A DNA stretch of 64,000 nt, from NCBI RefSeq assembly GCF_024502345.1, contig NZ_JALDNN010000001.1, one strand, 5' to 3'. A program made the position numbers and the translations under genes. A model generated the notes under the pieces. It was not told where the DNA came from and did not search any database. It saw only the letters and a list, made by a program, of their open reading frames with translations. Within the stretch, counting starts at the first letter, position 1. Every line of letters starts with the position of its first letter. The DNA comes from Escherichia coli (lineage in GTDB: Bacteria > Pseudomonadota > Gammaproteobacteria > Enterobacterales > Enterobacteriaceae). Shown here in pieces: positions 3,774-62,146 of the stretch.

Positions 3774-3908
3774 GACGATCTCCTGAAGATATAAGGAATA
3801 TCTTAAGGATACTGCAAAATGATGAGGCTGTGCATCGACGCAGCGTAAACGCATGTACTGAGCGGTGAAATTGCCGGACGCAGCGGTGCCTTATCCGGCT
3901 AACAAAAA

Positions 3909-43774: not shown

Positions 43775-43783
43775 GCAATTCTC

Positions 43784-44329
<546 letters not shown>

Positions 44330-44339
44330 TTAATTATTA

Positions 44340-45632: not shown

Positions 45633-45764
45633 CATATCTCCCTTATCTGGACCGATGGCCCACGATAATTTAGCAGAATGTTAACAAACTAAAATACACA
45701 AAACTACCAGAACCCTGTGGCAACCGGTGCCTGATGTTGACCGTCGGAACAGTCACCATCACGA

Positions 45765-47030
45765 TTACGGTTTGAAGTCCAATGGCGCGTTTTTGAACAC
45801 TTCATATACTGCCTGGCTTGGTGGTTTCGGGATCTTCGCAAGTTTAGCTGCTGCCAACGCAGCCTGACAAAGTGCGGGATCGCCACCTTCAGGTTTGATA
45901 TCCAGTAACATACCATCGGGTGCCAGTTTTATGCGCAGCGTACAGGTTTTGCCTGCATAGGACGATGCGTCATAGAACTTACTTTCGATAGCAGATTTAA
46001 TCTGTCCGGCATAGTTATTGATATCGGCCCCTGATGCGCCATTGTTTTTAGTATTACCACTCCCGGCAGGCGAAGCATTGTTCCCTTTCGCCCCTCCCCC
46101 CGTTTTCGGTGCATTCTTACCAGAGCTTAGCTCACCGAAAATATCATCTGCCTCTGCGGCCGCTTTTGCTGCAGCGGCTTTTTCAGCTGCAGCTTTTGCC
46201 GCTGCCGCTTTTTTGTCTGCGGCGGCTTTTTCTGCCGCTGCTTTCTTATCAGCTGCTGCCTTTTCAGCAGCCGCTTTTTCTGCTGCTTTTTTGTCGGCTG
46301 CAGCTTTCTCTGCTGCCGCTTTCTTATCAGCTGCAGCCTTTTCAGCAGCCGCTTTCTTCTCAGCTTCTGCTTTGGCTTTTTCAGCAGCTTCAGTTGCCGC
46401 TTTCTTTCTTGCTTCAGCTGCAGCTGCTTCTGCCGCTTCCGCTTTCTTCTTCAGTGCCGCAGCGGCTGCCTCGGCTTTTTTCTGCGCTTCGGCTGCGGCT
46501 TTGGCGGCTTCTGCTTCTGCTTTTTTCTTTGCGTCTGCAGCCGCTTTCTTCGCTGCTTCTTCCGCAGCTTTAGCATCTGCTTCGGCCTTCGCTTTAGCAT
46601 CTGCCGCCGCTTTCGCTGCCGCCTCTTCAGCTTGCTTCTGCTTTAACTCGGCCTGTTTTGCGGCTTCTTCAGCCTGCTTTTTCTGCTCCTGAGCCGCTAA
46701 CCGCTCTTTCTCAAGTTGCTTCAGGCGTTCCTGTTCAGCCGCTTGTTTCTCACGCAGTTCTTCAGCAGCCTGCTGTTCCTTCATCTTGCGCTGTTCATCA
46801 GAACGCTTCGCGCTTGATTCCTGGCTTTGCATGCGTTTGTACTGCTCAACTACCGCACCTGAATCAACCATGACAGCGTCGATGGACGAACCACCGCCGC
46901 CTCCGGCTGAAGCTTCTATATTCTCATCGAACGAACTCCAGATCAGCGCCGCAAATAAGATGACATGCAGCACTGCTGAAATAATTATCGCCCGCTTGAG
47001 CTTGTCGTTTTGTTCGGTTGCCTTTGACAC
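45765..47030 (-). CDS. tolA: Tol-Pal system protein TolA
   Basis: 421 aa; long Ala/Lys/Glu-rich helical domain with AAEKAAADKKAA repeats. Confidence 0.95.
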   Translation of the reverse strand: MSKATEQNDKLKRAIIISAVLHVILFAALIWSSFDENIEASAGGGGGSSIDAVMVDSGAVVEQYKRMQSQESSAKRSDEQRKMKEQQAAEELREKQAAEQERLKQLEKERLAAQEQKKQAEEAAKQAELKQKQAEEAAAKAAADAKAKAEADAKAAEEAAKKAAADAKKKAEAEAAKAAAEAQKKAEAAAAALKKKAEAAEAAAAEARKKAATEAAEKAKAEAEKKAAAEKAAADKKAAAEKAAADKKAAEKAAAEKAAADKKAAAEKAAADKKAAAAKAAAEKAAAAKAAAEADDIFGELSSGKNAPKTGGGAKGNNASPAGSGNTKNNGASGADINNYAGQIKSAIESKFYDASSYAGKTCTLRIKLAPDGMLLDIKPEGGDPALCQAALAAAKLAKIPKPPSQAVYEVFKNAPLDFKP

Positions 47031-47094
47031 TCTCGGTTTCCAAAAACTGTTCGCCTGTTACCCGCTCTCTTTCAAGCAAGGGAAACGCAGATGT

Positions 47095-47523
47095 TTAGAT
47101 AGGCTGCGTCATTAAACCAACCGATTTCACACCCGCACTATGTAACAAGTTCAGTGCTTTAATTATTTCATCGTAAGGCACATCTTTTGCGCCACCGATC
47201 AGAAAGACCGTTTTCGGGTTGGCCTTGAAACGGCTGGACACTTCCGCCACCACCTGCTCTGGTGGTAAACGCTCCAGGCGATCTTTCTCAACCACCACGG
47301 TGTACTGACCAATACCAGACACTTCAACAATCACTGGCGGATTATCGTTACTGCTCACCGCCTGTGATTCAGTAGCGTCTGGCAGATCGACCTCCACGCT
47401 CTGGGTGATGATGGGCGCTGTCGCCATAAAGATCAGCAACAGCACCAGCAGTACGTCCAGCAACGGTACAATGTTGATTTCGGACTTGAGATCGCGACGA
47501 CCTCGTCCACGCGCTCTGGCCAT
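47095..47523 (-). CDS. tolR: Tol-Pal system protein TolR
   Basis: 142 aa ExbD/TolR family. Confidence 0.95.
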   Translation of the reverse strand: MARARGRGRRDLKSEINIVPLLDVLLVLLLIFMATAPIITQSVEVDLPDATESQAVSSNDNPPVIVEVSGIGQYTVVVEKDRLERLPPEQVVAEVSSRFKANPKTVFLIGGAKDVPYDEIIKALNLLHSAGVKSVGLMTQPI

Positions 47524-47526
47524 GGC

Positions 47527-48620
<1,094 letters not shown>

Positions 48621-48769
48621 TTTACATCCCGGTAATGCAACAAAAGTTAGAGCTTTTAAACGCTGCTACTATACGCGCGCGATTGAGGTTTGGGAATGAG
48701 GGCAAGTTAAGGGAGCGTAAAAATTTATGGGCCTGGAGCGGCCCATAATTTTTTAAAGAGAATTCTGAT

Positions 48770-49063
48770 TTAAAAGAAGAAGAAAATCAGCCCGACAATG
48801 AGAACAATATCGGCAAGCAATGGGCAAAAAATCCCTTGCCAAAGAACCTTCTGCGGACGAAAGCCCACGCCGTGAATCACACCAGCACAGACGGCCCACA
48901 TCAGCAATAAACCATGCCAGATTTCCAGTTCACTGGTCTTCGCGGCAAAACGAGATGGGTCCCAAAACATACATCCTGCTAACAGAAGCGCCATCACGAA
49001 GGAAAGCGCCCGCAGGGGGCGCTTGTCCATTACCGCATACAAAGTCGCGATAATCTTACTCAT
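48770..49063 (-). CDS. ybgE: cyd-operon membrane protein YbgE
   Basis: 97 aa hydrophobic ORF downstream of cydX. Confidence 0.88.
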   Translation of the reverse strand: MSKIIATLYAVMDKRPLRALSFVMALLLAGCMFWDPSRFAAKTSELEIWHGLLLMWAVCAGVIHGVGFRPQKVLWQGIFCPLLADIVLIVGLIFFFF

Positions 49064-49176
49064 CAGATGTCTTCTTGACCGGCTTTGCCTGATTCGACGT
49101 GTTCAAGCGCCAGCGCGGTGATTACCCCAAACGAACAGGCAAGAAGCGTTCCCAGAATCCATGCGAAATACCACAT
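49063..49176 (-). CDS. cydX: Cytochrome bd-I small subunit CydX (37 aa)
   Basis: Hand-translated (below ORF-track cutoff): MWYFAWILGTLLACSFGVITALALEHVESGKAGQEDI; stop overlaps ybgE start (TGATG). Confidence 0.9.
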   Translation of the reverse strand: MWYFAWILGTLLACSFGVITALALEHVESGKAGQEDI

Positions 49177-49190
49177 TTTTAGCTCCTTAC

Positions 49191-50330
49191 TTAGTACAGA
49201 GAGTGGGTGTTACGTTCAATATCTTCTTTGGTGATACGACCGAACATTTTCCAGTAACACCAGGCGGTGTAGAGCAGAATGATCGGTACCAGAACCACCG
49301 CAACCCAGGTCATGACGTTAAGCGTCAGCTGGCTGGAAGTTGCATCCCACATTGTCAGACTTGCGTTCATCATGGTGCTGGACGGCATCACAAACGGGAA
49401 CATTGCGATACCGGCTGTCAGGATGATGCAGGCCAGCGCCAGGGAGGAGAACACAAACGCCCACGCGGCTTTATCCATACGTGCAGTCAGGATGGTCAGC
49501 AGCGGCAGAACCACACCCAGTGCCGGAATAGCCCACAGAATTGGCGTGTTGTTGAAGTTAACCAGCCATGCGCCAGCTTCACGAACCACTTCTTTATTCA
49601 GTGGGTTAGAGGCTGCGTAATGGTCCATTGTCGATTTCACGACATAACCATCGATACCGTACATCACCCATACGCCAGCCAGTGCGAAACAGACCAGTGT
49701 CACCAGCGCAGCCACCTGAGCCGTTGCACGGGTACGCAGGTGCAGTTCGCCCACGGTACGCATTTGCAGATAGGTTGCGCCCTGAGTAATGATCATCCCT
49801 ACGCTCACCACGCCTGCCAGCAGGCCGAACGGGTTAAGCAACTGGAAGAAGTTACCGGTGTAGTACAGACGCAGATATTCATCAACGTTGAACGGTACGC
49901 CCTGCAACAGGTTACCGAACGCTACACCAATTACCAGCGGCGGAACGAAGCTACCAATGAAGATGCCCCAGTCCCACATGTTACGCCAGCGGGTTTCTTC
50001 AATCTTGGAGCGGTAGTCAAAACCGACCGGACGGAAGAACAAAGACGCCAGCACGAGGATCATCGCCACATAGAAGCCGGAGAACGCAGCGGCATAGACC
50101 ATCGGCCAGGCAGCAAAGAGTGCGCCGCCCGCGGTGATCAGCCAAACCTGGTTACCGTCCCAGTGTGGTGCAATGGAGTTAATCATAATTCGACGCTCGG
50201 TGTCGTTACGACCGAGGAAACGGGTGAGCATGCCCACCCCCATGTCGAAACCGTCAGTGACTGCAAAACCAATCAGCAGAACGCCAACCAGCAGCCACCA
50301 GATAAAACGCAATACTTCATAATCGATCAT
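49191..50330 (-). CDS. cydB: Cytochrome bd-I ubiquinol oxidase subunit II
   Basis: 379 aa polytopic membrane protein. Confidence 0.95.
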   Translation of the reverse strand: MIDYEVLRFIWWLLVGVLLIGFAVTDGFDMGVGMLTRFLGRNDTERRIMINSIAPHWDGNQVWLITAGGALFAAWPMVYAAAFSGFYVAMILVLASLFFRPVGFDYRSKIEETRWRNMWDWGIFIGSFVPPLVIGVAFGNLLQGVPFNVDEYLRLYYTGNFFQLLNPFGLLAGVVSVGMIITQGATYLQMRTVGELHLRTRATAQVAALVTLVCFALAGVWVMYGIDGYVVKSTMDHYAASNPLNKEVVREAGAWLVNFNNTPILWAIPALGVVLPLLTILTARMDKAAWAFVFSSLALACIILTAGIAMFPFVMPSSTMMNASLTMWDATSSQLTLNVMTWVAVVLVPIILLYTAWCYWKMFGRITKEDIERNTHSLY

Positions 50331-50345
50331 TTGACGACTCCTGTC

Positions 50346-51914
50346 TTAGCGTGCCGGCTGAGTAGTCGTGGAAGACTGCTCAAAGTGATAGCGACCGGTT
50401 TTCAGGCTGCTTGGGCCGAGGCGTGCAAACTTGAACATTAAGAACAATTCTGCCACCAGGAACAGGGTATACAGGCCGCAAATCAGCACCATTGAGAAGA
50501 TGAGATCGCCTGCGGTCAGTGACGAGTTCGCCACAGCTGTCGGCAGCACTTCACCGATAGCCCACGGTTGGCGGCCATATTCAGCCACGAACCAGCCCGC
50601 TTCTACAGCAATCCACGGCAGCGGAATACCGTACAGCGCGGCGCGCAGCAGCCATTTTTTCTCGCCAATGCGGTTGCGGATGACACTCCAGAAAGAGAGC
50701 GCGATGATTGCCAGCAGCAGGAAGCCACACGCCACCATGATACGGAACGCGAAGTACAGCGGCGCTACACGCGGAATGGAGTCTTTGGTTGCCTGTTGAA
50801 TCTGCGCTTCAGTCGCATCAGCCACGTTTGGCGTATAGCGTTTCAGCAGCAGACCGTAACCGAGGTCTTTCTTCATGCTATTGAACTGGTCACGAACTGC
50901 CTGGTCGGTAGAACCAGAACGCAGTTGCTCGAGCAGAGAGTACGCCTTCATCCCGTTACGAATGCGTTCTTCATGCTGCACCATCAGTTCTTTCAGGCCG
51001 ATAACTGGAGTATCCACGGAACGCGTTGCAATGATGCCCAGCGCGTAAGGGATCTGGATCGCAAATTTGTTCGTCTCCTCTTCCTGATCAGGAATGCCGA
51101 ACAGAGTAAAGGCAGCAGGCGCAGGTTGCGTTTCCCACTCGGCTTCAATAGCAGCCAGTTTGGTTTTCTGCACGTCGCCCATTTCGTAACCAGATTCATC
51201 ACCCAGAACAATAACAGACAGAACGGCAGCCATACCGAAGCTGGCAGCGATAGCAAAGGAGCGTTTAGCGAAGGCGAAGTCACGACCTTTCAGCATATAC
51301 CATGCGCTGATACCGAGGATGAACATCGCGCCAGTCACATAACCAGACGCTACAGTGTGAACGAATTTCACCTGAGCAACCGGGTTAAGCACCAGCTCGG
51401 AGAAGCTCACCATCTCCATACGCATAGTTTCAAAGTTGAAATCGGACGCGATTGGGTTTTGCATCCAGCCGTTCGCAACCAGAATCCACAGTGCGGACAG
51501 GTTTGAACCGAGCGCCACCAGCCAGGTGACACACATATGCTGAACTTTACCCAGACGATCCCAACCGAAGAAGAACAGACCTACAAAGGTGGATTCGAGG
51601 AAGAAGGCCATCAGACCTTCGATTGCCAGCGGCGCACCGAAGATATCCCCTACATAGTGGGAATAGTAAGACCAGTTAGTCCCGAACTGGAACTCCATGG
51701 TCAGACCGGTAGCCACACCCAGAGCGAAGTTGATACCAAACAACTTGCCCCAGAACTTGGTCATATCTTTATAAATCTGTTTGCCGGAAAGGACGTAGAC
51801 CGTTTCCATAATGGCCAGCAGGAACGCCATACCGAGCGTCAGTGGCACAAAAAGGAAGTGGTACATCGCGGTCAAGGCAAACTGTAAGCGCGACAGTTCG
51901 ACTATATCTAACAT
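50346..51914 (-). CDS. cydA: Cytochrome bd-I ubiquinol oxidase subunit I
   Basis: 522 aa from [15 protein letters not shown]. Confidence 0.95.
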
Positions 51915-52251
51915 CATGACTCCTTGCTCATCGCATGAAGACTCCGAGAGTGAACCCCGTTAGAAAGGGTCACACGCATGCCCCAATACAAAATTATTTG
52001 CTCGCCTCTATCGTTGCCATTTCATCAAAAGAGGAAAAGACAATGATAAAAAAGTTACAAATATGTTAATGAATAAACCAAATTGATCCCGTAATTATAT
52101 TACGCCGCAAAATCCTTACAATAAACAGGTTTTTATTGAGCAAATTTGCATTTTTCGACAGTGATCAATTTATAGCGAAATTGTCACGATCTCACCAATT
52201 TGATCTACGACAATTTATCGTGTTTTGCAGATTTTTTTCAAGAATTAAAAA

Positions 52252-52265
52252 TTGATTTATATCAA
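52252..52265. promoter_or_regulatory. FNR-type box in the cydA upstream region
   Basis: ttgatttatatcaa = TTGAT-N4-ATCAA about 340 bp upstream of cydA. Confidence 0.55.
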
Positions 52266-52719
52266 AACCAACCAAATATGTTAATTATGTATAAACCATA
52301 GATCATTGGTGATTTTATTGTTAATTTATTGTGAAATATTTATGCAACACAATTATTACAATGAAAAGGTATAGATAAAAAACCAGTGTTTTATTTAACA
52401 GAACCGCCCAATCAACTTTTTATAATACCAATTGATTAGAGTAGCCAATTTGTTGCTATTTTACATAACATATTTTTATCAAAGTTAATTGATTGTTGCC
52501 TTTATGAGCACCGACCGTAAGCCCGTTATGTTATTGTTTCATTAGTAATAATCACTTAAATGTATCGATGAAACAGGTATGACTTACCGGGAGTGATTGT
52601 TTCTGAGTGAACAGAGGCCACTTTCGCCTGATAAATGAAAAATGAGCGATTTTTGCAAGTTAGTTTTTCTATAGCCGAGTACGCTCAGCGCCTCGCTTGA
52701 TTACAATGAGGTTGCTGCT

Positions 52720-53664
52720 ATGAGTCCTGATAATATCGGTTCGGCTGTCAATCGCTTCTCAGGTTGGCCATCTAATGATCCTCTAAAAACAGATGAAGAA
52801 TCAATGAAATCACCCGTGACTGTGCAAGTAATAAAGATGATTGCCGCCATCCTTGACCCACATCGGATAGTCGTTGGAATTGATACACTTTATACAACGC
52901 AGCGCGAAACATTTACCTCAGAGAGTCAACAGCTCATTGAATCAGCATTGCAAACACTTCATGTGATGAATTTAAATAATCTGGAAACAAATCGCGATGA
53001 AGAAGGTCACTATCTGGCTTTTGAATATAACGTTGACACCTCTGACAGAATAACCGTTTCTGCTTATAATGAAAAAAAGCCTGGCTGCTATGGCCAATGT
53101 CTTTTAATACAGGATGACGAAACAGACTTATTTAACCTGATAAAAATTAAAATTTTCGAAGCCAGGCATAATTATGTCGCTCAATTGATGAGCGATCCGG
53201 AATTTATGTTCAAATTCAGTTATAGCGCTCAACAAAATAGATTAGAACCTCATCTTCTGGTTCCCGCTTATTTCCCTCTAAAAACAAACGAACCGGTTAC
53301 GCAAGAGGATGTACTGTTACTTTATCGTTTCTTTAAAATGAATGATGATTTTAATAAATTAACATCAGAGGAATACATGAGTATCATGACTCCTCTGATG
53401 AAGTGTGAGCGTAGCGTCCACGACAACAACAGGTATGTGACGGGCAAAGATACCCATCTTCTGGACTATCCTCCTTCTGGTAACCAGATACATTTCCATA
53501 TTTTTCCTGACGAATCAGCAACACTAGTCCTTTATTTTTCAAACAATGACCTTGAATGTTTCGTCTTTGAAAGAGATATTCCTAGCCAGTATCGCTTTTT
53601 CAAAATGTTTACCAATCTGGCACTGGTTATAGATCAGTTAACCGAAGCCAATAAAATACTTTAA
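52720..53664 (+). CDS. Hypothetical protein (314 aa), AT-rich accessory gene, no recognised domain
   Basis: Intact ORF with SD (gagg) 9 nt upstream; visibly AT-rich codon usage; no TM segment, signal peptide or P-loop; Ser/Asn/Pro-rich N-terminus. Confidence 0.6.
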   Translation: MSPDNIGSAVNRFSGWPSNDPLKTDEESMKSPVTVQVIKMIAAILDPHRIVVGIDTLYTTQRETFTSESQQLIESALQTLHVMNLNNLETNRDEEGHYLAFEYNVDTSDRITVSAYNEKKPGCYGQCLLIQDDETDLFNLIKIKIFEARHNYVAQLMSDPEFMFKFSYSAQQNRLEPHLLVPAYFPLKTNEPVTQEDVLLLYRFFKMNDDFNKLTSEEYMSIMTPLMKCERSVHDNNRYVTGKDTHLLDYPPSGNQIHFHIFPDESATLVLYFSNNDLECFVFERDIPSQYRFFKMFTNLALVIDQLTEANKIL

Positions 53665-53744
53665 TTTTCTATATATCCCTATGGCAAATATTGCTAAACA
53701 ATGCCTGGGGATTAATTTTTATTACTCACGGAAAGATTTAAATA

Positions 53745-54167
53745 ATGATACCATCTCAGATCTCTTTCAATACCCTTCCAGTCAATGCAACATACGCTTC
53801 AGAGACAACAGTTGACACACAAAAATTCTCTGACATCCTCTACTCAGCGGGGTGTTCCCTAAAGGATATGGCTTATCTGAGCAGATGTCTGGCATCAATA
53901 CACCCGACTCTCGCCAAAAACATTTATGAAACAGAAAATCTCAGCGATCAAAAATTACTGCATATTGATTGCCGTAGTACAAATGACATCAAGATAAATA
54001 TCTTTTTTGGTCAGCAACGAGAAGGATTAATTGAAATTAGTTCTGACACAGTTATTTTTTCGATACTGTCTTCATTGATTGACTCCGCCATTTCTAAATT
54101 TCAACATCAAAACCCCGTTAACGGTTCAGTTAATCCTGAACTATTGTATAAGGATTATACTGATTAA
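53745..54167 (+). CDS. Hypothetical protein (140 aa), AT-rich accessory gene, no recognised domain
   Basis: Intact ORF 80 bp downstream of the 314 aa ORF, same strand, SD-like ggaaag; Ser/Thr/Asn-rich N-terminus. Confidence 0.55.
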   Translation: MIPSQISFNTLPVNATYASETTVDTQKFSDILYSAGCSLKDMAYLSRCLASIHPTLAKNIYETENLSDQKLLHIDCRSTNDIKINIFFGQQREGLIEISSDTVIFSILSSLIDSAISKFQHQNPVNGSVNPELLYKDYTD

Positions 54168-54714
54168 ACCCACCCAGTCGCGAAAAATGGCCTGCGTTAT
54201 TGCCAGACGTAATAAAACCGTTGATTAACGTTACTCATACTGGTAGCACCTTCATGTACCTCTCTTTTTTACGAAAAATCAAAAGAGCTAACTAAGGTCA
54301 TAATTCGCATGAATCATTAACCATTTGTTATTTTCAACATTATTTTTACATTAAGCAGAAATGAATTGCAGTGAAATTCGACTTAAATCTTATGAAATGC
54401 ATTTACTCATGGCTAAAACCACGTCACAAAAATGCAAATTAGAAGTAGATCACAATTATCTCAATACATTAAATCAAGTTAATTTTAAAAATTTAACATT
54501 CATGTCATTAGTTGACATAACACACTGAATTAACATGGAAATTTAAAAACACACTTTAAACAATCATTTCCCGAAAGACATTTTGAAAATAGATCAATTG
54601 CAACATTACGGTCAGATAAAGACACTCCTGTGATATTAAACCTGTGCCGTTATGAACGGCCATAAATACGACGTGTGTAACTTATTTTACTCTCTGTCTT
54701 ACAAAGGATTACCC

Positions 54715-55164
54715 ATGAAGAAAGCAACACTTGTGATTGGCGTTATTGGCGCGGACTGCCATGCAGTAGGCAATAAAGTTCTGGACCGCGTTTTTAGCAA
54801 CCACGACTTCAGAGTCATTAATCTGGGCGTAATGGTCAGCCAGGACGAATATATTGATGCTGCCATCGAAACTGGCGCTGACGCGATTATCGTCTCCTCT
54901 ATCTATGGGCATGGCGATATCGACTGTCTGGGCATGCGCGAACGCTGCATCGAGCGTGGACTGGGTGACATCCTCCTCTATGTGGGCGGTAACCTGGTGG
55001 TCGGAAAACATGACTTCGCTGACGTGGAAACCAAGTTCAAAGAGATGGGATTTGATCGCGTCTTTGCCCCAAGTCATGACTTAGAAGATGTTTGTCAGCT
55101 GATGGCCCACGATATCAATCAACGTCATGACGTTGATACTCGTATTCTTGAAGAGGCTATCTGA
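54715..55164 (+). CDS. glmS: Glutamate mutase sigma subunit (B12-binding)
   Basis: Cobalamin-binding DxHxxG motif ([10 protein letters not shown]); close match to remembered Clostridium GlmS/MutS; start at MKKATLVIG. Not the GlcN-6-P synthase glmS. Confidence 0.88.
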
Positions 55165-56552
55165 TGCAAATCGTCTCTGTCGATATTGGATCGACGTGGA
55201 CCAAAGCTGCCCTCTTCACCCGGGAGGGGGACGCGTTAACGTTGGTTAACCACGTACTGACCCCAACCACCACCCATCATCTGGCGAAGGGGTTTTTCTC
55301 CAGCCTGAACCAGGTGTTAAACGTAGATAATGCCCTCCCCCTGTTAAACAGCGGTGAGGTTGCATTGAAGTATTCCTCCTCTGCCAAAGGTGGGCTGGCG
55401 GTTGCCGCAATGGGATTGGTGCCTTCTATCACCCTGGAAACCGCGAAAGTAACCGCTCACTCTGCGGGGGCTAAAATTGCGCAATATTACGCCTACAAGC
55501 TGAACCGCCGTGATATCCAGGCACTGGAAGAAACGCAGCCCGATATTCTCTTGTTCACCGGCGGCACCGACGGCGGAGAAGAAAGCTACGGACTGAATAA
55601 CGCCCGTGTGCTGGCAGAATCCAAACTCGACTGCGCCATTATTTATGCCGGAAACCGGGATATTCAGGACGAGGTGCAGGAGATCCTCGGGCATAAAGAC
55701 CTGACCATCGTCGACAATGTTCTGCCCGATCTTGACCATCCGAACCCTTTAGCCGCACGCCAGGCTATTTGCGACATATTCCTTAAACGCATCGTTAAAG
55801 GGAAAGGGCTGGATGTCATTGTTGATAAAACAGGCGAAGAACCAATGCCGACACCATGGACGGTCTTTGAACTGGTCAAGGCAATCAGTAACGTCGATCA
55901 CAGCTGGAAAGAGTTCATGCTGATCGACATGGGCGGCGCAACCACCGATGTTTATTCCGCCGGTGCCAACACGCTCTCGCCCGACACCGTTTTACACGGC
56001 GTACCGGAACCCTTCGTAAAACGGACGGTGGAAGGCGATCTGGGAATGCGCGTCTCGGCAGTGGTGGTTGGTGAAAGTGCGAAAGAGTTAGTCAATGTGA
56101 ATTTTGCTCAGCAACCCGCACAGCTGGACGCTTTTTATCATTACCTCCGTCATCTAGTCGCTCATCCCGACTACTTACCCGCAAATGCAGAAGAGAAATA
56201 TTTCGATACCGTCCTGGCCGGACTGTGTGTGGGTTATGCCACCGAAAGACATGCGGGCACCAAAAAAGAGGTCTGCACCTGCGTCGGCAATGTCGATTTA
56301 CAGATGGGACGTGACCTGACAACCGTGCGTAAAGTCGTCGGATCCGGCGGATGGCTCTCGCGTGCCAGTCAGTTCGATATGCATCACTGGTTGAAATACC
56401 GCGAGTTAAACGACGACGGTAAACGCATTCTCTTACCGACCGAATTTGAATATTACCGCGATTCCCGGGGGCTATTACCACTGCTGGCAAACGTCGCCAG
56501 AGTCGATCCGCTGGCCGCCGCGCGCACCAGTATTCAATGCTTAACCCTATAA
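55164..56552 (+). CDS. glmL: Glutamate mutase-associated protein GlmL/MutL (actin-like ATPase fold)
   Basis: 462 aa; N-terminal VDIGSTWTKAALF phosphate-1 motif; sits between S and E subunit genes; ATGA overlap with glmS. Confidence 0.8.
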   Translation: MQIVSVDIGSTWTKAALFTREGDALTLVNHVLTPTTTHHLAKGFFSSLNQVLNVDNALPLLNSGEVALKYSSSAKGGLAVAAMGLVPSITLETAKVTAHSAGAKIAQYYAYKLNRRDIQALEETQPDILLFTGGTDGGEESYGLNNARVLAESKLDCAIIYAGNRDIQDEVQEILGHKDLTIVDNVLPDLDHPNPLAARQAICDIFLKRIVKGKGLDVIVDKTGEEPMPTPWTVFELVKAISNVDHSWKEFMLIDMGGATTDVYSAGANTLSPDTVLHGVPEPFVKRTVEGDLGMRVSAVVVGESAKELVNVNFAQQPAQLDAFYHYLRHLVAHPDYLPANAEEKYFDTVLAGLCVGYATERHAGTKKEVCTCVGNVDLQMGRDLTTVRKVVGSGGWLSRASQFDMHHWLKYRELNDDGKRILLPTEFEYYRDSRGLLPLLANVARVDPLAAARTSIQCLTL

Positions 56553-56570
56553 CAATTAAGGCTGCAATCA

Positions 56571-58016
56571 ATGGAACTTCGAAATAAGAAATTAACCCAT
56601 GACGAATTCATGACCGAGCGGCAACAGGTACTGAAAACCTGGGAAACCGGCAAGGATGTTGAAAACTTTGAAGATGGCGTTAAATACCAACAAAACATTC
56701 CTGAGCATAAACGCTTCTCTCATGCCCTGCTGAAAGCAGACAAGGAAGGTAAAACCCTTAGCCAACCGCGCGCAGGTGTGGCGCTGATGGACGAACACAT
56801 CGAACTGCTGAAAACACTACAAGAAGAGTGCGATCTGCTGCCAAGCACCATCGATGCATATACCCGTCTGAATCGGTACGAAGAAGCGGCTGTAGGGATT
56901 AAAAAATCCATCGAAGCCGGAACCTCTAAACTGAACGGTTTACCGGTAGTTAACCATGGTGTCGCAGCTTGCCGTCGCCTCACCGAAACCCTGCAAAAAC
57001 CGCTACAGATCCGCCACGGCACGCCAGATGCGCGTCTGCTGGCTGAAATCTCAATGGCCAGCGGCTTTACCAGTTATGAAGGCGGTGGCATTTCCTACAA
57101 CATTCCGTATGCCAAACGTGTAACGCTGGAAAAATCGATCCGCGACTGGCAGTACTGCGACCGTTTAATGGGGATGTACGAAGAACACGGGATCCGCATC
57201 AACCGCGAACCGTTTGGCCCACTAACGGGTACGCTGATCCCGCCGTTTATCTCGCACTCTATCGCGATAATCGAAGGCTTGCTGGCGCTGGAACAGGGTG
57301 TGAAATCTATCACCGTTGGTTATGGCCAGGTCGGCAGCCTGACGCAGGATGTTGCGGCGATCCAGTCTCTGCGTGAACTTGCACACGAATACTTTCAGAG
57401 CTATGGCTATACCGACTATGAATTAAGTACCGTGTTTCACCAGTGGATGGGCGGCTTTCCGGAAGACGAATCGAAAGCGTTCGCTATTATCTCCTGGGGC
57501 GCAGCCGTCGCGGGGATGTCTGGTGCCACCAAACTCATCACCAAAAGTCCGCACGAAGCCTGGGGCATTCCGACTGCCGCTGCCAACATTCAGGGGCTGA
57601 AAGCCTCCCGCCAGATGCTCAACATGGTCAATGAGCAGAAATTCCCGCCGTGCCCTGCGGTTGAACTGGAAATTGAACTGATTAAGAGCGAGGTTCGCGC
57701 AGTACTGAATAAAGTGTTCGAACTGGGTAATGGTGATATTGCGCGCGGAACGGTGCTGGCATTTGAAGCGGGCGTACTGGATGTGCCGTTTGCGCCAGCC
57801 GCCTGCAACGCGGGCAAAATTCTTCCGGTCCGTGACAACACCGGCGCGATACGCGTACTGGAAGCCGGAGCCGTTCCATTGCCAAAAGATATTCTCGACC
57901 TCCACCACGATTACGTTGCGGAACGCGCACGCTGTGAAGGACGCCAACCGACATTCCAGATGGTTGTAGATGACATCAATGCTGTATCCCACAGTAAATT
58001 AATAGGAAGACCATAA
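56571..58016 (+). CDS. glmE: Glutamate mutase epsilon (catalytic) subunit
   Basis: 481 aa; extensive identity to remembered Clostridium GlmE (LPSTIDAYTR, HGTPD, VFHQWMGGFP, KTPHEA). Confidence 0.9.
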   Translation: MELRNKKLTHDEFMTERQQVLKTWETGKDVENFEDGVKYQQNIPEHKRFSHALLKADKEGKTLSQPRAGVALMDEHIELLKTLQEECDLLPSTIDAYTRLNRYEEAAVGIKKSIEAGTSKLNGLPVVNHGVAACRRLTETLQKPLQIRHGTPDARLLAEISMASGFTSYEGGGISYNIPYAKRVTLEKSIRDWQYCDRLMGMYEEHGIRINREPFGPLTGTLIPPFISHSIAIIEGLLALEQGVKSITVGYGQVGSLTQDVAAIQSLRELAHEYFQSYGYTDYELSTVFHQWMGGFPEDESKAFAIISWGAAVAGMSGATKLITKSPHEAWGIPTAAANIQGLKASRQMLNMVNEQKFPPCPAVELEIELIKSEVRAVLNKVFELGNGDIARGTVLAFEAGVLDVPFAPAACNAGKILPVRDNTGAIRVLEAGAVPLPKDILDLHHDYVAERARCEGRQPTFQMVVDDINAVSHSKLIGRP

Positions 58017-59257
58017 TGAAAATAAAACAGGCCCTGTTCACCGCTGGCTATTCCTCATTCTATTTCGATGACCAGCAGGCGATAAAAAACGGAGCGGGTC
58101 ATGACGGCTTTTTTTATACCGGGGAGCCGGTAACACAGGGGTTTAACGCCGTTCGTCAGGCCGGGGAGTGCGTATCGGTACAGTTGATTCTGGAAAACGG
58201 CGCGGTCGCCGTAGGTGACTGTACTGCCGTACAGTATTCCGGGGCAGGCGGTCGCGATCCACTGTTCCTCGCAGAGCACTTTATTCCGTTCCTCAACGAC
58301 CATATCAAGCCATTACTGGTAGGCCGCGATGTGGATGCTTTCCTGCCGAATGCCCGTTTCTTCGACAAATTGCGTATTGACGGCAACTTGCTGCATACCG
58401 CCGTGCGCTACGGATTATCACAGGCGCTGCTTGATGCTACCGCGCTGGCAACCGGCCGTCTGAAAACTGAAGTGGTCTGTGATGAATGGCAGTTGCCACG
58501 CGTGGCGGAATCCATTCCATTATTTGGTCAGAGCGGCGACGATCGATATATCGCCGTCGATAAGATGATCCTTAAAGGCATCGACGTGCTGCCCCATGCG
58601 CTGATTAATAACGTCGAAGAGAAGCTGGGCTTTAAAGGTGAAAAACTGCGCGAATATGTCCACTGGCTGTCGGATCGCATTCTGAGCAAGCGCACCAGCG
58701 CACGCTACCACCCAACCCTGCACATCGATGTATACGGCACTATCGGTCTGATCTTCGATATGGATCCGCTTCGCTGTGCGCAATACATCGCCAGCCTGGA
58801 AAAAGAAGCGCAAGGCCTGCCGCTCTACATCGAAGGGCCGGTCGATGCCGGTAACAAGCCCGATCAAATTCGCCTGCTGACCGCGATTACCAAAGAGCTG
58901 ACGCGCCTCGGTTCCGGCGTGAAAATTGTGGCCGATGAATGGTGTAACACCTACCAGGATATTGTTGATTTCACTGATGCTGCCAGTTGTCACATGGTGC
59001 AAATCAAAACCCCGGATCTGGGCAGTATTCACAACATCGTCGATGCGGTTCTTTACTGCAACAGCCACAGCATGGAAGCGTACCAGGGCGGCACCTGCAA
59101 TGAAACTGATGTCAGTGCCCGCACCTGTGTCCACGTCGCCCTTGCCGCTCGCCCTATGCGTATGCTGGTAAAACCAGGGATGGGCTTTGACGAAGGCCTC
59201 GATATCGTCTTCAACGAAATGAATCGTACTATCGCGCTGTTGCAGGCTAAGGATTAA
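58016..59257 (+). CDS. mal: 3-methylaspartate ammonia-lyase
   Basis: 413 aa; enolase-superfamily; strong identity to remembered Clostridium MAL (GAGHDGF, VQYSGAGGRDPLFLA, HMVQIKTPDLG); ATGA overlap with glmE. Confidence 0.92.
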   Translation: MKIKQALFTAGYSSFYFDDQQAIKNGAGHDGFFYTGEPVTQGFNAVRQAGECVSVQLILENGAVAVGDCTAVQYSGAGGRDPLFLAEHFIPFLNDHIKPLLVGRDVDAFLPNARFFDKLRIDGNLLHTAVRYGLSQALLDATALATGRLKTEVVCDEWQLPRVAESIPLFGQSGDDRYIAVDKMILKGIDVLPHALINNVEEKLGFKGEKLREYVHWLSDRILSKRTSARYHPTLHIDVYGTIGLIFDMDPLRCAQYIASLEKEAQGLPLYIEGPVDAGNKPDQIRLLTAITKELTRLGSGVKIVADEWCNTYQDIVDFTDAASCHMVQIKTPDLGSIHNIVDAVLYCNSHSMEAYQGGTCNETDVSARTCVHVALAARPMRMLVKPGMGFDEGLDIVFNEMNRTIALLQAKD

Positions 59258-59260
59258 CAA

Positions 59261-60631
59261 ATGGCTCGTTCTTTTAAAGTCTTATCGCCAACGGCAATCC
59301 TCGGGTATGGATTCCCGGAAGAGAGCTTCCGCAAAGCGATGGCAGAATCGCCCGATCTGATCGCCGTTGATGCAGGCTCTTCCGATCCAGGCCCCCACTA
59401 CCTCGGGGCAGGCAAACCGTTTACCGATCGCGCAGGGGTCAAGCGCGATCTGCGCTATATGATCACCGCAGGCGTGCAAAATAATATACCGGTGGTGATC
59501 GGAACGGCTGGCGGTTCTGGTGCCGCACCACACCTGGAGTGGTGCCGAGAAATAATTCATGAGATTGCCCGGGAAGAGCACCTCTCGTTCTCGATGGCGC
59601 TGATCCCGGCAGACGTTGACAAAGCCATCGTCCACCAGGCGCTGGATAACGGCAAAATCACGGCGCTGGAGTTTGTCCCGCCGTTAACCCACGACGCGAT
59701 TGACGAAAGTACGTATATCGTCGCGCAAATGGGCATCGAACCCTTCCAGCGTGCGCTAAAAGAAGGCGCGCAAGTGGTGCTGGGTGGGCGCGCTTACGAC
59801 CCGGCCTGCTTTGCTGCGCTACCGATCATGCAAGGCTTTGATGAAGGTCTGGCGCTGCATTGTGGGAAAATCCTTGAGTGCGCAGCAATCGCCGCAACGC
59901 CCGGCTCAGGCTCTGACTGTGCGATGGGCATCATTGATGACAACGGCTTTACGCTGAAGACATTTAATCCGAAGCGTAAATTTACCGAAACGTCAGCAGC
60001 TGCACACACACTGTATGAGAAATCCGATCCTTACTTCCTGCCAGGACCTGGCGGCGTGTTGAATCTGAAAGGCTGCACATTTAAAGCGGTCAATAACGGC
60101 GAAGTGTACGTCAGCGGTTCTAAGCATGAAGAAACGCCGTATGCCCTGAAACTGGAAGGTGCACGACGGGTGGGCTTCCGCTGTCTGACCATCGCCGGAA
60201 CGCGCGACCCGATTATGATCGCCGGGATCGATAAAATCATCGATGAAGTCAAAACCAGCGTTTCGCGTAACCTGTCGCTCGACGATGACAGCATTCGCAT
60301 CAATTTCCACCTGTACGGCAAAAACGGGGTGATGGGAGACCATGAACCGATGCAAACTGCCGGGCATGAGCTGGGGATTGTCCTTGATGTAGTTGCACCG
60401 ACCCAGGAAATTGCCAACAGCGTTTGCTCGCTGGTGCGCTCTACCATGCTGCACTACGGCTATGAAAACCGCATCGCTACCGCAGGCAATCTGGCGTTCC
60501 CGTTCTCCCCTTCTGATATCCAGGGCGGGCCGGTATACGAATTTTCCATATATCACCTGATTGAAGCCAACGACGCTCTGCGTTTTGATTTCCATATTGA
60601 ACAGGTGACGCCAGAAGGAGTTCAGGCATGA
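59261..60631 (+). CDS. DUF1446 (AtuA N-terminal domain-like) protein of unknown function
   Basis: 456 aa ORF 4 nt after mal; family assignment from memory, not searched. Confidence 0.7.
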   Translation: MARSFKVLSPTAILGYGFPEESFRKAMAESPDLIAVDAGSSDPGPHYLGAGKPFTDRAGVKRDLRYMITAGVQNNIPVVIGTAGGSGAAPHLEWCREIIHEIAREEHLSFSMALIPADVDKAIVHQALDNGKITALEFVPPLTHDAIDESTYIVAQMGIEPFQRALKEGAQVVLGGRAYDPACFAALPIMQGFDEGLALHCGKILECAAIAATPGSGSDCAMGIIDDNGFTLKTFNPKRKFTETSAAAHTLYEKSDPYFLPGPGGVLNLKGCTFKAVNNGEVYVSGSKHEETPYALKLEGARRVGFRCLTIAGTRDPIMIAGIDKIIDEVKTSVSRNLSLDDDSIRINFHLYGKNGVMGDHEPMQTAGHELGIVLDVVAPTQEIANSVCSLVRSTMLHYGYENRIATAGNLAFPFSPSDIQGGPVYEFSIYHLIEANDALRFDFHIEQVTPEGVQA

Positions 60632-60945
60632 AACAGTCAATTGTCTCACTGGCGCAAGTCATTCGTTCGAAAAATGCCGGACCTTACGAACTGGTTTTAG
60701 ATATTTTATTTAAAACGAAAGAAAACTATGAGCGAGTTAAATCATCAGGGCAATTAACCCCAGAACTGATTGCGCGCTTATATCATGTTGAACCTGACTT
60801 TATTCATCGTATTGTCTGGTTTGATCCTTCTAACGCAGTAAAAATCGTCATGCCACGAGATATTATCTCCGGGAATGTAGGTGACAATGATGTCTATGGT
60901 GCACAGCAACATGCACCTTTATTAAATATGAGTTTCGATTTGTAA
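60628..60945 (+). CDS. DUF4387 (AtuA C-terminal domain-like) small protein
   Basis: 105 aa ORF overlapping preceding ORF by 4 nt (ATGA); family assignment from memory. Confidence 0.65.
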   Translation: MKQSIVSLAQVIRSKNAGPYELVLDILFKTKENYERVKSSGQLTPELIARLYHVEPDFIHRIVWFDPSNAVKIVMPRDIISGNVGDNDVYGAQQHAPLLNMSFDL

Positions 60946-61028
60946 AAATCCGAATACTTTTAGCCAACTGACATCCCGTCACTTATTACAGTTCAACACT
61001 TCAGCTATTTGTAAGGTTGTAATAGCAG

Positions 61029-61060
61029 GTAGATGCCTGAATCTCTATTCAGGCATCTAC
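61029..61060 (+). terminator. Inverted repeat / possible attenuator between DUF4387 gene and transporter gene
   Basis: gtagatgcctgaatctctattcaggcatctac perfect 14 bp stem; no clean U-tract. Confidence 0.4.
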
Positions 61061-61084
61061 TTCTCCTGATTCTGATTTATCGCC

Positions 61085-61378
61085 GTGCACCTGATGGAGG
61101 AAAAAATGAAGAAAATAAGTTTAACCACGATGATTCTTTTGGCGCTGGTACTTGGAATGATTATCGGCGTAGTGCTCAATAACACTGTTTCACCGGAAAC
61201 AGCAAAACTCTATGCGCAAGAAATATCGATATTCACGACGATTTTCTTACGACTGATAAAAATGATTATCGCTCCGTTAGTGGTCTCTACCCTGGTGGTA
61301 GGTATTGCTAAAATGGGAGATGCCAAAGCCCTTGGTCGTATTTTTTCTAAAACACTCTTTTTATTTATTTGCGCCTCA
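61085..61378 (+). pseudogene. 5' fragment (98 codons) of a DAACS-family (GltP/DctA-like) dicarboxylate/amino acid:cation symporter gene, truncated by IS1
   Basis: [30 protein letters not shown] matches the GltP N-terminal signature; reading frame runs into IS1 and stops after 8 IS1-encoded codons. Confidence 0.85.
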
Positions 61379-61433
61379 GGTGATGCTGCCAACTTACTGA
61401 TTTAGTGTATGATGGTGTTTTTGAGGTGCTCCA

Positions 61434-61709
61434 GTGGCTTCTGTTTCTATCAGCTGTCCCTCCTGTTCAGCTACTGACGGGGTGGTGCGTAACGGCAAAA
61501 GCACCGCCGGACATCAGCGCTATCTCTGCTCTCACTGCCGTAAAACATGGCAACTGCAGTTCACTTACACCGCTTCTCAACCCGGTACGCACCAGAAAAT
61601 CATTGATATGGCCATGAATGGCGTTGGATGCCGGGCAACCGCCCGCATTATGGGCGTTGGCCTCAACACGATTTTCCGCCATTTAAAAAACTCAGGCCGC
61701 AGTCGGTAA
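61434..61709 (+). CDS. insA: IS1 protein InsA
   Basis: 91 aa; zinc-finger CPSC..CSHC; matches remembered InsA. Confidence 0.95.
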
Positions 61710-62131
61710 CCTCGCGCATACAGCCGGGCAGTGACGTCATCGTCTGCGCGGAAATGGACGAACAGTGGGGATACGTCGGGGCTAAATCGCGCCAGCGCTG
61801 GCTGTTTTACGCGTATGACAGGCTCCGGAAGACGGTTGTTGCGCACGTATTCGGTGAACGCACTATGGCGACGCTGGGGCGTCTTATGAGCCTGCTGTCA
61901 CCCTTTGACGTGGTGATATGGATGACGGATGGCTGGCCGCTGTATGAATCCCGCCTGAAGGGAAAGCTGCACGTAATCAGCAAGCGATATACGCAGCGAA
62001 TTGAGCGGCATAACCTGAATCTGAGGCAGCACCTGGCACGGCTGGGACGGAAGTCGCTGTCGTTCTCAAAATCGGTGGAGCTGCATGACAAAGTCATCGG
62101 GCATTATCTGAACATAAAACACTATCAATAA
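61628..62131 (+). CDS. insB: IS1 transposase InsB (expressed as InsAB' by -1 frameshift)
   Basis: 167 aa ORF in -1 frame relative to insA. Confidence 0.93.
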
Positions 62132-62146
62132 GTTGGAGTCATTACC

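Follow-up and report, generated by a model that had tools for sequence, protein, structure and literature searches.

LysR-type regulators recognise sites of T-N11-A or ATAC-N7-GTAT architecture (PMC11495319). Kronen & Berg (2015; PMC4682846) describe the methylaspartate pathway cluster as enriched in pathogenic and opportunistic enterobacteria, propose a role for it in intestinal glutamate use and, in the legend to Figure 5, place a LysR-type regulator within the enterobacterial cluster. Searching the literature by locus tag and by topic, we found no study of the regulation of the glm/methylaspartate cluster, and no binding, transcription start site or expression experiment on the glmS promoter was found in the literature searched. 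Here we describe the spacer upstream of glmS in a 64,000-nucleotide stretch of Escherichia coli DNA (the window). On balance, we favour reading it as non-coding control DNA in two parts: a neutral distal part, and a proximal operator/promoter part that would be under the control of the cluster's own LysR regulator.

The glm island and its AT-rich spacer

The glm genes at this locus specify a B12-dependent glutamate (methylaspartate) mutase, glmS-glmL-glmE. The features around the spacer are as follows, the operon genes being placed from ORFs and the RefSeq annotation of near-identical records.

52720-53664: hyp1; it and hyp2 were inserted, in E. coli only, into what was ancestrally the intergenic region of cydA and glmS
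53745-54167, + strand: hyp2, a 140-aa orphan and the upstream neighbour of the spacer, present in E. coli loci only and degraded in Escherichia sp. L031
54715-55164, + strand: glmS, methylaspartate (glutamate) mutase subunit S, first gene of the operon
55164-56552, + strand: glmL
56571-58016, + strand: glmE
58016-59257, + strand: methylaspartate ammonia-lyase
61379-62146, + strand: IS1, 768 bp, with InsA and IS1 transposase domains and located IS1 ends
62142-62555, - strand: remnant of a GcvA-like LysR regulator, 137 aa, helix-turn-helix (HTH) only (Pfam HTH_1 only)

The glm cluster occurs in many genera at differing sites, and this glutamate-fermentation operon was acquired horizontally; the accessory island that carries it is present in 1135 of 5426 complete E. 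coli genomes (21%). Neither hyp1 nor hyp2 has a match in Pfam, NCBIfam or PHROGs, and hyp1 has no sequence match in the PDB; their dN/dS values are 0.15-0.5. In this genome, IS1 takes the place of 3.9 kb of the cluster, with the loss of fumD, cobO, the larger share of the glutamate/dicarboxylate symporter gene and all but the N-terminal third of the regulator. In the BLAST map, window positions 42743-61378 correspond to 1044-19679 of L001, which has the full-length regulator, and 62147-62573 to 23590-24016. The IS1 junction is found in none of the 5426 complete E. coli genomes. Since only the HTH domain of the regulator survives, and the genes for mesaconase and the B12 adenosyltransferase are deleted along with most of that for the transporter, the glm switch is probably dead in this genome.

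The spacer itself extends from the end of hyp2 (54167) to the glmS ATG (54715), spanning 547 bp (54168-54714) with a GC content of 0.325 compared to 0.507 for the window as a whole. Only 1.06% of 547-nt segments in the window are as AT-rich. The initial annotation, which had described an AT-rich, ORF-free gap of about 550 bp before the glm operon, was correct in both coordinates and description. The other comparably AT-rich tract in the window is the region upstream of cydA. The ORF listing contains no ORF of at least 60 aa on either strand, as had been noted, but this absence is uninformative because base composition predicts it: 57% of composition-matched shuffles of the spacer likewise lack such an ORF. 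Long A/T runs are indeed present, in mild excess (7 runs of at least 5, against 3.3 +/- 1.7 in shuffles). Of the short palindromes reported, neither of the two quoted strings is palindromic as written; ttgacataacacac (54512-54525) contains no dyad, while atcaattgcaac (54593-54604) does hold the palindromic 6-mers CAATTG and TTGCAA. Both strings lie inside the two blocks that are conserved across genera (see below).

The spacer is also, as had been remarked, longer than a simple promoter needs, and its length is high for two genes in the same orientation. Essentially every cluster-bearing Enterobacterales genome has 400-1400 bp of AT-rich, ORF-free DNA before glmS. In E. coli the spacer is single-copy and its plasmid matches are confined to three records of 0.7-4.9 Mb, so it is neither a repeat nor a mobile element.

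The distal part of the spacer

Three features define the distal part.

54168-54308: left segment, the 3' flank of the hyp1-hyp2 module, 41% GC, with an inverted repeat CTCTTTT...AAAAGAG at 54262-54287
54309-54515: AT-richest core, 25% GC, evolving neutrally and alignable only within Escherichia
54361-54528, + strand: 55-aa ORF, the sole spacer ORF of more than 50 aa, not a conserved gene

The distal ~350 bp evolves at the synonymous rate and is unconstrained. Between 54168 and 54515, K(JC) against the most divergent E. coli strain (L002) is 0.163, alongside dS values of 0.07-0.22 for the flanking genes; about 20% of the alignment columns vary among five strains, and BLAST finds no match in other genera to the left of ~54516. 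In E. whittamii and Escherichia sp. E1V33, which are without hyp1 and hyp2, homology ends at ~52560 and restarts only at 54309/54424, suggesting that part of the distal DNA arrived with the E. coli-specific hyp1-hyp2 insertion. About two-thirds of the spacer is neutral DNA, and a hidden gene is not needed to explain its unusual length.

The initial annotation had raised the possibility of such a gene, either a small RNA or a small ORF, and we consider this highly improbable. There is ample room for one, a minus-strand promoter-like site lies at 54482-54455, and the 55-aa ORF was probably once annotated as ECs0765/Z0896 (the Z0896 mapping being inferred from tag order); locus-tag gaps occur at its position in Sakai, where ECs_0765 is missing, and in two PGAP records. 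Against this, the ORF is frameshifted in L002 and in L031, its substitutions elsewhere are mostly non-synonymous, it has no Pfam match, and Z0896 received zero reads across 11 conditions of EDL933 RNA-seq. The small spacer ORFs, projected onto seven other lineages, proved not to be conserved; those other than the 55-aa ORF kept an open frame only within invariant stretches of DNA. The Sakai ribosome-profiling supplement, as far as its contents could be matched, has no entry with spacer coordinates or gene tags, which is weak evidence because its coordinate format is unverified. With respect to RNA, an Rfam search of 51800-55000 on both strands with permissive filters (E<=10) returned only chance matches to eukaryotic snoRNAs and lncRNAs. 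A consensus scan found zero terminator-like sites in the spacer, and no T-run follows the inverted repeat at 54262-54287. Sliding-window fold z-scores on both strands all lie within +/-2.4, with a weak signal (-1.7/-2.3) restricted to 54240-54339, and a single-sequence promoter scan found four promoter-like sites in the spacer where shuffles lead one to expect 5.6.

A more serious alternative gives the distal DNA a function in silencing. The entire 550 bp would act as a platform on which H-NS/StpA nucleates distally and spreads over the promoter, with a counter-silencer acting at the conserved block. This overlaps our preferred explanation, from which it differs mainly in assigning a function to the distal part. 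We regard it as a real possibility, albeit not the one we expect to hold. The control region of cydAB, adjacent to the island, is a known H-NS target. The spacer has a GC content of 25-33% in a 51% GC genome, making it well above average in AT, it belongs to a horizontally acquired island, and it shows the mild excess of A/T runs. The glm operon is also near-silent: in strand-specific RNA-seq of O157:H7 EDL933 (PMC4048457, supplement) the glm genes have RPKM values of 0-3 in 11 conditions, compared to 13-212 for the neighbouring cydA. Furthermore, an AT-rich, ORF-free tract of at least 400 bp is kept before glmS in all genera and genomic contexts despite sequence turnover, a hint that the distal part is perhaps more than filler. 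On the other hand, the distal sequence changes at the synonymous rate, AT-biased mutation of unconstrained DNA would yield the same composition, and the leftmost 140 bp, confined to E. coli, reaches no more than 59% AT. H-NS silencing of the spacer is best described as plausible, fitting its composition, horizontal origin and silence, but neutral AT-biased drift accounts for the composition equally well. In our preferred explanation, the distal part (54168 to ~54515) would have no sequence-specific function and would provide at most an AT-rich surface for H-NS-like nucleoid proteins, or an insulator.

The conserved region preceding glmS

The proximal ~200 bp (about 54516-54714) is under constraint and contains the following features.

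54518-54531, - strand: conserved upstream patch TAACACACTGAATT, with the IHF consensus WATCAANNNNTTR in most genera and two mismatches to it in E. coli
54560-54601, + strand: conserved block (candidate operator); upstream half of consensus aTCaTTTTnnGaAaGAT, downstream half the invariant 21-mer TTTTGAAAATAGATCAATTGC
54583-54597: dyad TTGA-N7-TCAA (T-N11-A), proposed LysR site, with a GATC Dam site at 54592-54595
54598-54626, + strand: best conserved sigma-70 candidate, -35 TTGCAA (54598-54603), 17-bp spacer, -10 GACACT (54621-54626)
54634-54639, + strand: conserved (c)TATTAA ('attaa' alignment columns), an alternative -10 (predicted start about 54646) or early-transcribed sequence
54646-54660, + strand: E. 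coli hairpin/palindrome GCCGTT-ATG-AACGGC in the presumed 5' UTR, lineage-specific
54690-54717, + strand: translation-initiation region, Shine-Dalgarno AGGA at 54705-54708 and glmS ATG at 54715-54717 (PGAP start)

Against the most divergent strain, K is 0.036 in the proximal part compared to 0.163 in the distal part, and the last 160 bp of the spacer contains just three variable columns among five E. coli lineages. Conservation is deepest in the 21-mer TTTTGAAAATAGATCAATTGC (54581-54601), in which none of the 34 aligned sequences, drawn from about 10 genera, shows a change: Escherichia, Klebsiella, Citrobacter, Salmonella and Enterobacter all have it intact, and in Yersinia it can still be recognised. 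All Enterobacteriaceae, Yersinia and Budvicia loci have exactly one copy of the motif, always before glmS on the + strand. The surrounding 35-nt segment (54572-54606) is single-copy and 100% identical in 1132 of the 1135 island-bearing E. coli genomes and, within the sensitivity of BLAST, absent from the island-less genomes among the 5426. From the 21-mer through the ATTAA block the alignment is gapless, and the distance to the glmS ATG is about 108-136 nt in most loci. The cross-genus DNA elements in the last ~200 bp, their fixed spacing from glmS and the glm RPKM values in EDL933 support the earlier proposal of a regulated promoter region. Morganella has the cluster but is missing the motif. 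In a Telmatospirillum MAG (L072) the DNA before glmS matches the motif with three mismatches, which is within chance for the amount of DNA searched and was discarded.

The box at 54583-54597 has the T-N11-A form and imperfect dyad symmetry of a LysR site, and we propose that it is bound by the LysR-type regulator of the cluster. Variants in Yersinia, Budvicia and Hafnia keep TGA-N7-TCA with altered interior bases, and 19 bp upstream of the dyad lies the centre of a weaker block. The 25-kb locus contains no second copy of the operator at <=3 mismatches, and its other TTGA-N7-TCAA matches are the anticodon stems of tRNA-Lys. The dyad centre falls at about -43 from the start predicted for GACACT or -56 from that for TATTAA; the textbook LysR site is at -65. 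Nearly the entire 19-mer is conserved, beyond the arms of the dyad, so the block may be a composite of dyad, -35 element and another site, or it may be the site of a different protein.

Such a protein might be a core-genome regulator (of the FNR/CRP family, IHF, ArcA, Lrp or similar) acting in place of the cluster's LysR protein, in which case oxygen or global nutrient status would control the glm operon directly. We think this unlikely. The TTGA...TCAA arms have the letters of FNR half-sites, and a dyad centre at about -42/-43 from the predicted start is in the class II position. Enterobacterial methylaspartate ammonia-lyase is reportedly made under oxygen limitation, and the LysR gene of the cluster is 10 kb away. 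However, FNR and CRP require half-sites separated by N6, and the conserved half-sites are N7 apart in every genus, unlike those of TTGA-N6-TCAA; on this spacing we rejected the dyad as an FNR/CRP site, and the two factors, for which the initial annotation had proposed ChIP, are not supported for it. With regard to IHF, ATCAA-N4-TT within the block resembles part of the IHF core in most genera, but the match fails in E. coli (TTGCAAC). Moreover, the motif is found nowhere else in the 25-kb locus or, by BLAST, which degenerate sites would escape, in the 5426 E. coli genomes.

A separate IHF-like element lies further upstream. In ~26 of the 33 loci from Enterobacteriaceae, the core WATCAANNNNTTR is matched with <=1 mismatch at a constant 65-66 bp before the dyad centre; the background density for the consensus is 0.53 matches per 100 nt. 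The corresponding E. coli patch (54518-54531) overlaps the first copy of a direct repeat, AACACACT (54519-26 and 54548-55).

Among candidate promoters, the TTGCAA/17/GACACT arrangement, with a predicted start at about 54632-54634, has a position-weight score of 3.55 averaged over 34 sequences; the next position scores 1.1. Its nAnACT and TTGC elements are conserved across all genera. TATTAA is the weaker -10 by score because the final T is missing, and no sigma-54 GG/GC pattern at -24/-12 was seen by eye. The translation-initiation region has the cross-genus consensus c..tcag.c.ta.AgaGGATtacccATG, and other genera do not share the in-frame ATG located upstream at 54652.

The conserved ~155 nt preceding glmS might also be an RNA leader, a riboswitch or attenuator sensing B12 or glutamate, but we give this very little credence. 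The region is riboswitch-sized, the enzyme is B12-dependent, and a possible -10 within the block (GAAAAT) would place most of the block in the transcript; lineage-specific hairpins follow downstream, and GC-rich hairpins near the position of 54646-54660 are present in many genera. Yet neither the cobalamin riboswitch (RF00174) nor any other credible Rfam family matches 51800-55000 on either strand at E<=10, and RNAalifold on 23 diverse leaders gave -0.92 kcal/mol with three trivial pairs, no compensatory change and no consensus structure. Pairing in register with the 54646-54660 hairpin involves 43% of cells, and slid controls score as high; lineage-specific hairpins were accordingly dropped as a covariation signal. 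Instead, the alternation of invariant blocks with spacers whose length is fixed but whose sequence varies freely is the pattern of DNA sites.

Returning to control by the cluster's own regulator, we infer a region ordered as an IHF-like patch (degenerate in E. coli), the 42-bp operator block and an abutting weak sigma-70 promoter. Transcription would start near 54633 (GACACT) or near 54646 (TATTAA) and continue through an unstructured leader of about 70-80 nt into the conserved ribosome-binding region. The GcvA-like LysR regulator would bind the dyad and the flanking half-conserved block and, given a pathway metabolite and probably under oxygen limitation, would activate the poor promoter; the operon would be silent without this activation.

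The candidate regulator and related systems

The full-length island regulator in L001 has 301 aa, contains HTH_1 and LysR_substrate domains, and has GcvA as its best NCBIfam match. In the island-bearing O157:H7 strain Sakai, whose regulator is intact, the gene is probably ECs0755, judging from tag order. In Citrobacter, Enterobacter and Salmonella, orthologues with 84-86% identity hold the corresponding end position in the cluster, irrespective of what lies beyond it. Yersinia has a 64%-identical orthologue upstream and divergent; Aromatoleum and Rhodoferax have theirs, of 42-45% identity, immediately next to glmS and divergent from it. The regulator gene is thus linked to its putative target operon from enterobacteria to beta-proteobacteria, as is usual for LysR systems. 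The divergent arrangement with a shared operator is not found in Enterobacteriaceae, where the gene is situated about 10 kb downstream of the operator and convergent with cobO, which is atypical for the family. Ahead of the regulator gene, 12 nt from its ATG, is an operator-like dyad, TTAAAAATAGTTTAA (62567-62581); identified post hoc (p~0.06 in 300 nt), it fits autoregulation and weakly suggests it. A motif search near the Yersinia regulator gene produced nothing convincing.

A bolder and more tentative proposal is that the 21-nt block and the fixed IHF-like site form the operator of an uncharacterised sensor of glutamate, methylaspartate or mesaconate, the long AT tract, which accompanies the cluster in every genus, being a selected silencing or insulating module. 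If true, enteric pathogens would use that sensor to turn on their B12-dependent fermentation of glutamate. The analysis yields a precisely delimited, deeply conserved candidate operator, a candidate regulator and a defined minimal promoter fragment.

The closest known counterparts are the promoters of LysR activators: BenM at benA (ATAC-N7-GTAT), GcvA at gcvT, AmpR at ampC and DsdC at dsdXA. The glmS region shares with them a 15-bp dyad with 4-bp arms separated by N7, a less conserved second block ~19 bp upstream, a poor promoter in need of help, and a regulator, here of the GcvA subgroup of LysR proteins, encoded within the same gene cluster. It departs from them in that the enterobacterial regulator is encoded at the opposite end of the cluster and not divergently, and TTGA-N7-TCAA differs from the motif bound by GcvA, CTAAT-N5-ATTAG. 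Class II sites for FNR and CRP (TTGAT-N4-ATCAA and TGTGA-N6-TCACA) resemble the dyad in their TTGA/TCAA letters and in a possible location touching the -35 element, but the half-sites here are 1 bp further apart and other features of FNR/CRP sites were not found. With H-NS-silenced control regions, and with the cydAB region, the locus has in common a long AT-rich, ORF-free tract before an accessory operon that stays silent under laboratory conditions. Unlike in those regions, the AT-rich part here is without sequence constraint, so that its composition could be a by-product of neutral drift. Finally, the clostridial mut/glm-mal clusters specify the same enzymes and pathway (Kronen & Berg, 2015; PMC4682846) but, according to the legend to Figure 4 of that paper, have a putative regulator of the GntR type, whereas the enterobacterial cluster combines a LysR-type regulator with the candidate operator described here.

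Setting and composition of the spacer

The window is a piece of Escherichia (or Shigella-like) chromosome, and the spacer is a feature of an ordinary class, a promoter/operator region flanked by neutral DNA, within an accessory metabolic island. The island runs glmS-glmL-glmE, methylaspartate ammonia-lyase, an AtuA-like gene, DUF4387, a symporter of the glutamate/dicarboxylate type, FumD (mesaconase), cobO and a LysR-type regulator, and corresponds to what Kronen & Berg 2015 (PMC4682846) call the 'glutamate fermentation cluster'. The product of glmS is the small subunit of the coenzyme-B12-dependent glutamate (methylaspartate) mutase rather than glucosamine-6-phosphate synthase. Of 5426 complete E. 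coli genomes, 1135 carry the island, singly except for one genome with two places, and none of the RefSeq records listed annotates a feature in the spacer.

Neighbours of the spacer
52720-54167, hyp1 and hyp2, AT-rich orphans of 314 and 140 aa found in E. coli only
53745-54167, hyp2, the 140-aa orphan upstream of the spacer
54715, ATG of glmS, downstream of the spacer

An in-frame ATG at 54652, 21 codons 5' of the glmS start, gives a mechanical ORF of 170 aa. It is not kept in other genera and precedes the conserved Shine-Dalgarno sequence (54652-54714), so 54715 is the real start.

At 547 bp and 32.5% GC (50.7% in the window), the spacer is as strongly AT-rich as the initial annotation held; only ~1% of windows of its size match it, and the sole comparable tract is the adjoining cydA control region. 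It does lack an ORF of at least 60 aa, but so do 57% of same-composition shuffles, and the absence is therefore uninformative. Long A/T runs are present (7 vs 3.3 +/- 1.7 expected), their enrichment being mild, while the two sequences quoted as palindromes are not true palindromes, though both fall within the two conserved blocks.

A GlmS scan taking one genome per species yielded 80 loci, among which hyp1 and hyp2 are confined to E. coli. Neither matched Pfam, NCBIfam or PHROG, and hyp1 had no PDB sequence match; their dN/dS values lie at 0.15-0.5, and Escherichia sp. MOD1-EC7003 (L031) has degraded copies of the two. The cluster occupies the same site in E. whittamii, Klebsiella, the Citrobacter freundii complex and Salmonella arizonae, where the cydA-to-glmS gap is uninterrupted, ORF-free and 1.2-1.4 kb long. 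This straight gap in relatives indicates that the hyp1-hyp2 module (~52560-54309) is an indel in the ancestral divergent intergenic region and that it includes the spacer's leftmost ~140 bp. The cydA upstream region (51918-52719, 800 bp) is the window's most AT-rich tract, down to 22% GC, and its cross-genus conservation ends at ~52265-52560, where the island-side sequence starts. In Enterobacter, Lelliottia, Yersinia, Hafnia, Morganella and Buttiauxella the cluster has other chromosomal contexts, and the ORF-free tract 5' of glmS is still 400-710 bp long with 22-41% GC (loci 43-56%).

Neutral flank, constrained core and the question of H-NS

BLAST alignment of E. coli with other genera begins only at ~54516. 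When five E. coli lineages were aligned over the spacer, the last ~160 bp before glmS contained 3 variable columns, against ~20% variable columns in the other ~390 bp. Compared with the most divergent strain, the distal spacer has a divergence of 0.163, equal to the synonymous divergence of neighbouring genes (0.07-0.22), and the proximal 200 bp one of 0.036; the distal part therefore behaves as neutral DNA, and the proximal part is under constraint. Among E. coli genomes, identity over the whole spacer spans 89-99.8%; a 35-nt segment around the operator motif has 100% identity in 1132 of the 1135 island-bearing genomes and is absent from the 4291 genomes without the island.

The proposal that a small RNA or small ORF is hidden here found no support. 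Rfam gave no match in the spacer, cobalamin riboswitch included, despite the enzyme's need for B12; no terminator-like site was found, neither strand folds with unusual stability, 23 diverse leaders gave no consensus RNA structure, and the register of an E. coli hairpin (54646-54660) is not kept in other genera. A 55-aa ORF (54361-54528) was rejected as a conserved gene, being frameshifted in two lineages. One locus tag is skipped between hyp2 and glmS in Sakai (L086; ECs_0765) and in two PGAP records (L001 and L004; C6W79_RS01690, RC72_RS09905), pointing to a withdrawn small-ORF annotation. In EDL933 the interval between glmS and cydA was assigned four hypothetical tags (Z0896-Z0899) and now has two annotated genes; here too small-ORF calls were withdrawn. 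Going by tag order, Z0896 would be the 55-aa ORF; this hypothetical gene beside glmS is among 144 genes with zero reads in eleven conditions (PMC4048457, Table S3).

In the same EDL933 data, of low sequencing depth, the glm genes reach RPKM 0-3 in all conditions vs 13-212 for cydA (PMC4048457), which is compatible with an inducible or silenced promoter. The text of the Sakai ribosome-profiling supplement has no entry under these coordinates or gene tags, a weak negative from conditions that would not induce the operon. The cydAB control region is an H-NS target, and H-NS binding to the spacer is plausible from its composition, foreign origin, silence and cydAB neighbourhood. AT-biased drift explains the composition equally well, since the AT-rich part diverges neutrally; the retention of a tract of at least 400 bp 5' of glmS in every genus, although its sequence has turned over completely, favours a role.

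Conserved elements of the glmS control region

A regulated promoter region, also proposed initially, is borne out by conserved DNA elements in the proximal spacer, whose order was taken from a multi-genus alignment.

Elements of the control region, 5' to 3'
54518-54531, minus strand, IHF-like patch (IHF consensus WATCAANNNNTTR)
54560-54601, operator block, 42 bp; its downstream 21 nt, TTTTGAAAATAGATCAATTGC, are invariant
54583-54597, dyad TTGA-N7-TCAA in the operator block
after the operator block, free sequence of ~20 nt, fixed in length
54620-54628, aGAcACTCC, conserved
54634-54639, (c)TATTAA, conserved
3' of (c)TATTAA, variable leader, then conserved ribosome-binding region

With a sigma-70 weight matrix averaged over 34 sequences, the top position (score 3.55, runner-up 1.1) combines a -35 TTGCAA (54598-54603), part of the invariant block, with a -10 GACACT (54621-54626) across a 17-bp spacer. 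The conserved TATTAA is an alternative candidate -10, and transcription is predicted to start near 54633 or 54646 according to which of the two serves. In ~26 of 33 Enterobacteriaceae loci the IHF-like patch departs from its consensus by no more than one base and is placed exactly 65-66 bp from the centre of the dyad; the background is 0.53 such matches per 100 nt, and the E. coli patch has two mismatches. Just 5' of the operator block lies a direct repeat, AACACACT (54519-54526 and 54548-54555, 29 bp apart), of which both copies are present in Buttiauxella too; a related GACACTCC makes up the -10 region.

In its 18-mer form the operator motif occurs exactly once in each Enterobacteriaceae, Yersinia and Budvicia locus, on the coding strand and 5' of glmS, and is absent from the Morganella loci. 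In the latter (L048, L051, L052, L054, L055) glmS has a 600-700 bp AT-rich upstream tract with no recognisable operator motif, and Morganella is not among the named matches to the regulator at E<=1e-60, most matches carrying no name. In Citrobacter amalonaticus S646 (L016) an insertion that resembles the ERIC (enterobacterial repetitive intergenic consensus) repeat lies between operator and glmS and brings the operator-ATG distance to 242 nt (usually ~130); a second ERIC-like copy lies beyond the regulator gene in strain 88-3493 (L001 24230-24340). An alphaproteobacterial Telmatospirillum MAG (L072) carries CTGAAAATAGATC at 3778-3795, ~120 nt 5' of a glmS homologue; with 3 mismatches to the 18-mer, the match is within chance expectation given how much DNA was searched, but its position is suggestive.

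The candidate regulator and known operator sites

The regulator contains HTH_1 and LysR_substrate domains and is nearest to the GcvA/DsdC group, scoring below the GcvA cut-off. Orthologues in Citrobacter, Enterobacter and Salmonella (84-86% identity) follow cobO in convergent orientation irrespective of the flanks; the Yersinia orthologue (64%) is divergent and 5' of the cluster, and those of Aromatoleum and Rhodoferax (42-45%) are directly divergent from glmS. The window was mapped onto L001, an intact relative.

Features around the regulator gene
61106-61378, symporter remnant, cut after ~270 nt by IS1
61379-62146, IS1, 768 bp, in place of 3.9 kb of the cluster
62142-62555, minus strand, regulator remnant, 137-aa HTH-only ORF
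62567-62581, operator-like dyad TTAAAAATAGTTTAA, 12 nt 5' of the regulator's own start codon

The IS1 lesion also deleted fumD and cobO, and none of the 5426 complete E. coli genomes has its junction; in strain 2018-05-2CC the regulator gene was hit independently by IS1. The glutamate-fermentation system is decaying in this genome, and the control region, intact in sequence, is owing to this lesion probably without its regulator and part of the pathway. A role of the dyad TTAAAAATAGTTTAA in autoregulation is conceivable: it differs from the glmS operator dyad at 3 positions, shares its interior AAATAG and shows partial conservation in Citrobacter (L088), but it was spotted post hoc and is only weakly significant (p~0.06 in 300 nt).

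The novelty is modest, a deeply conserved candidate operator for an unstudied glutamate-fermentation regulator, of which no description was found in the literature searched. FNR and CRP, named initially for this region, recognise TTGA-N6-TCAA sites. The half-site letters of the dyad resemble those of FNR, but it is one base pair wider (N7) in every genus, and it is therefore not filed as an FNR or CRP site. Its arms, TGA...TCA, are kept in Yersinia, Budvicia and Hafnia with different interior bases. A GATC (Dam methylation) site inside it (54592-54595) is invariant in Enterobacteriaceae and reads AATC or TATC in Yersinia; methylation-sensitive binding is conceivable. Geometry and linkage suggest that the regulator may bind the operator block: the dyad shares the T-N11-A geometry of LysR-type sites, such as ATAC-N7-GTAT of BenM (PMC11495319).
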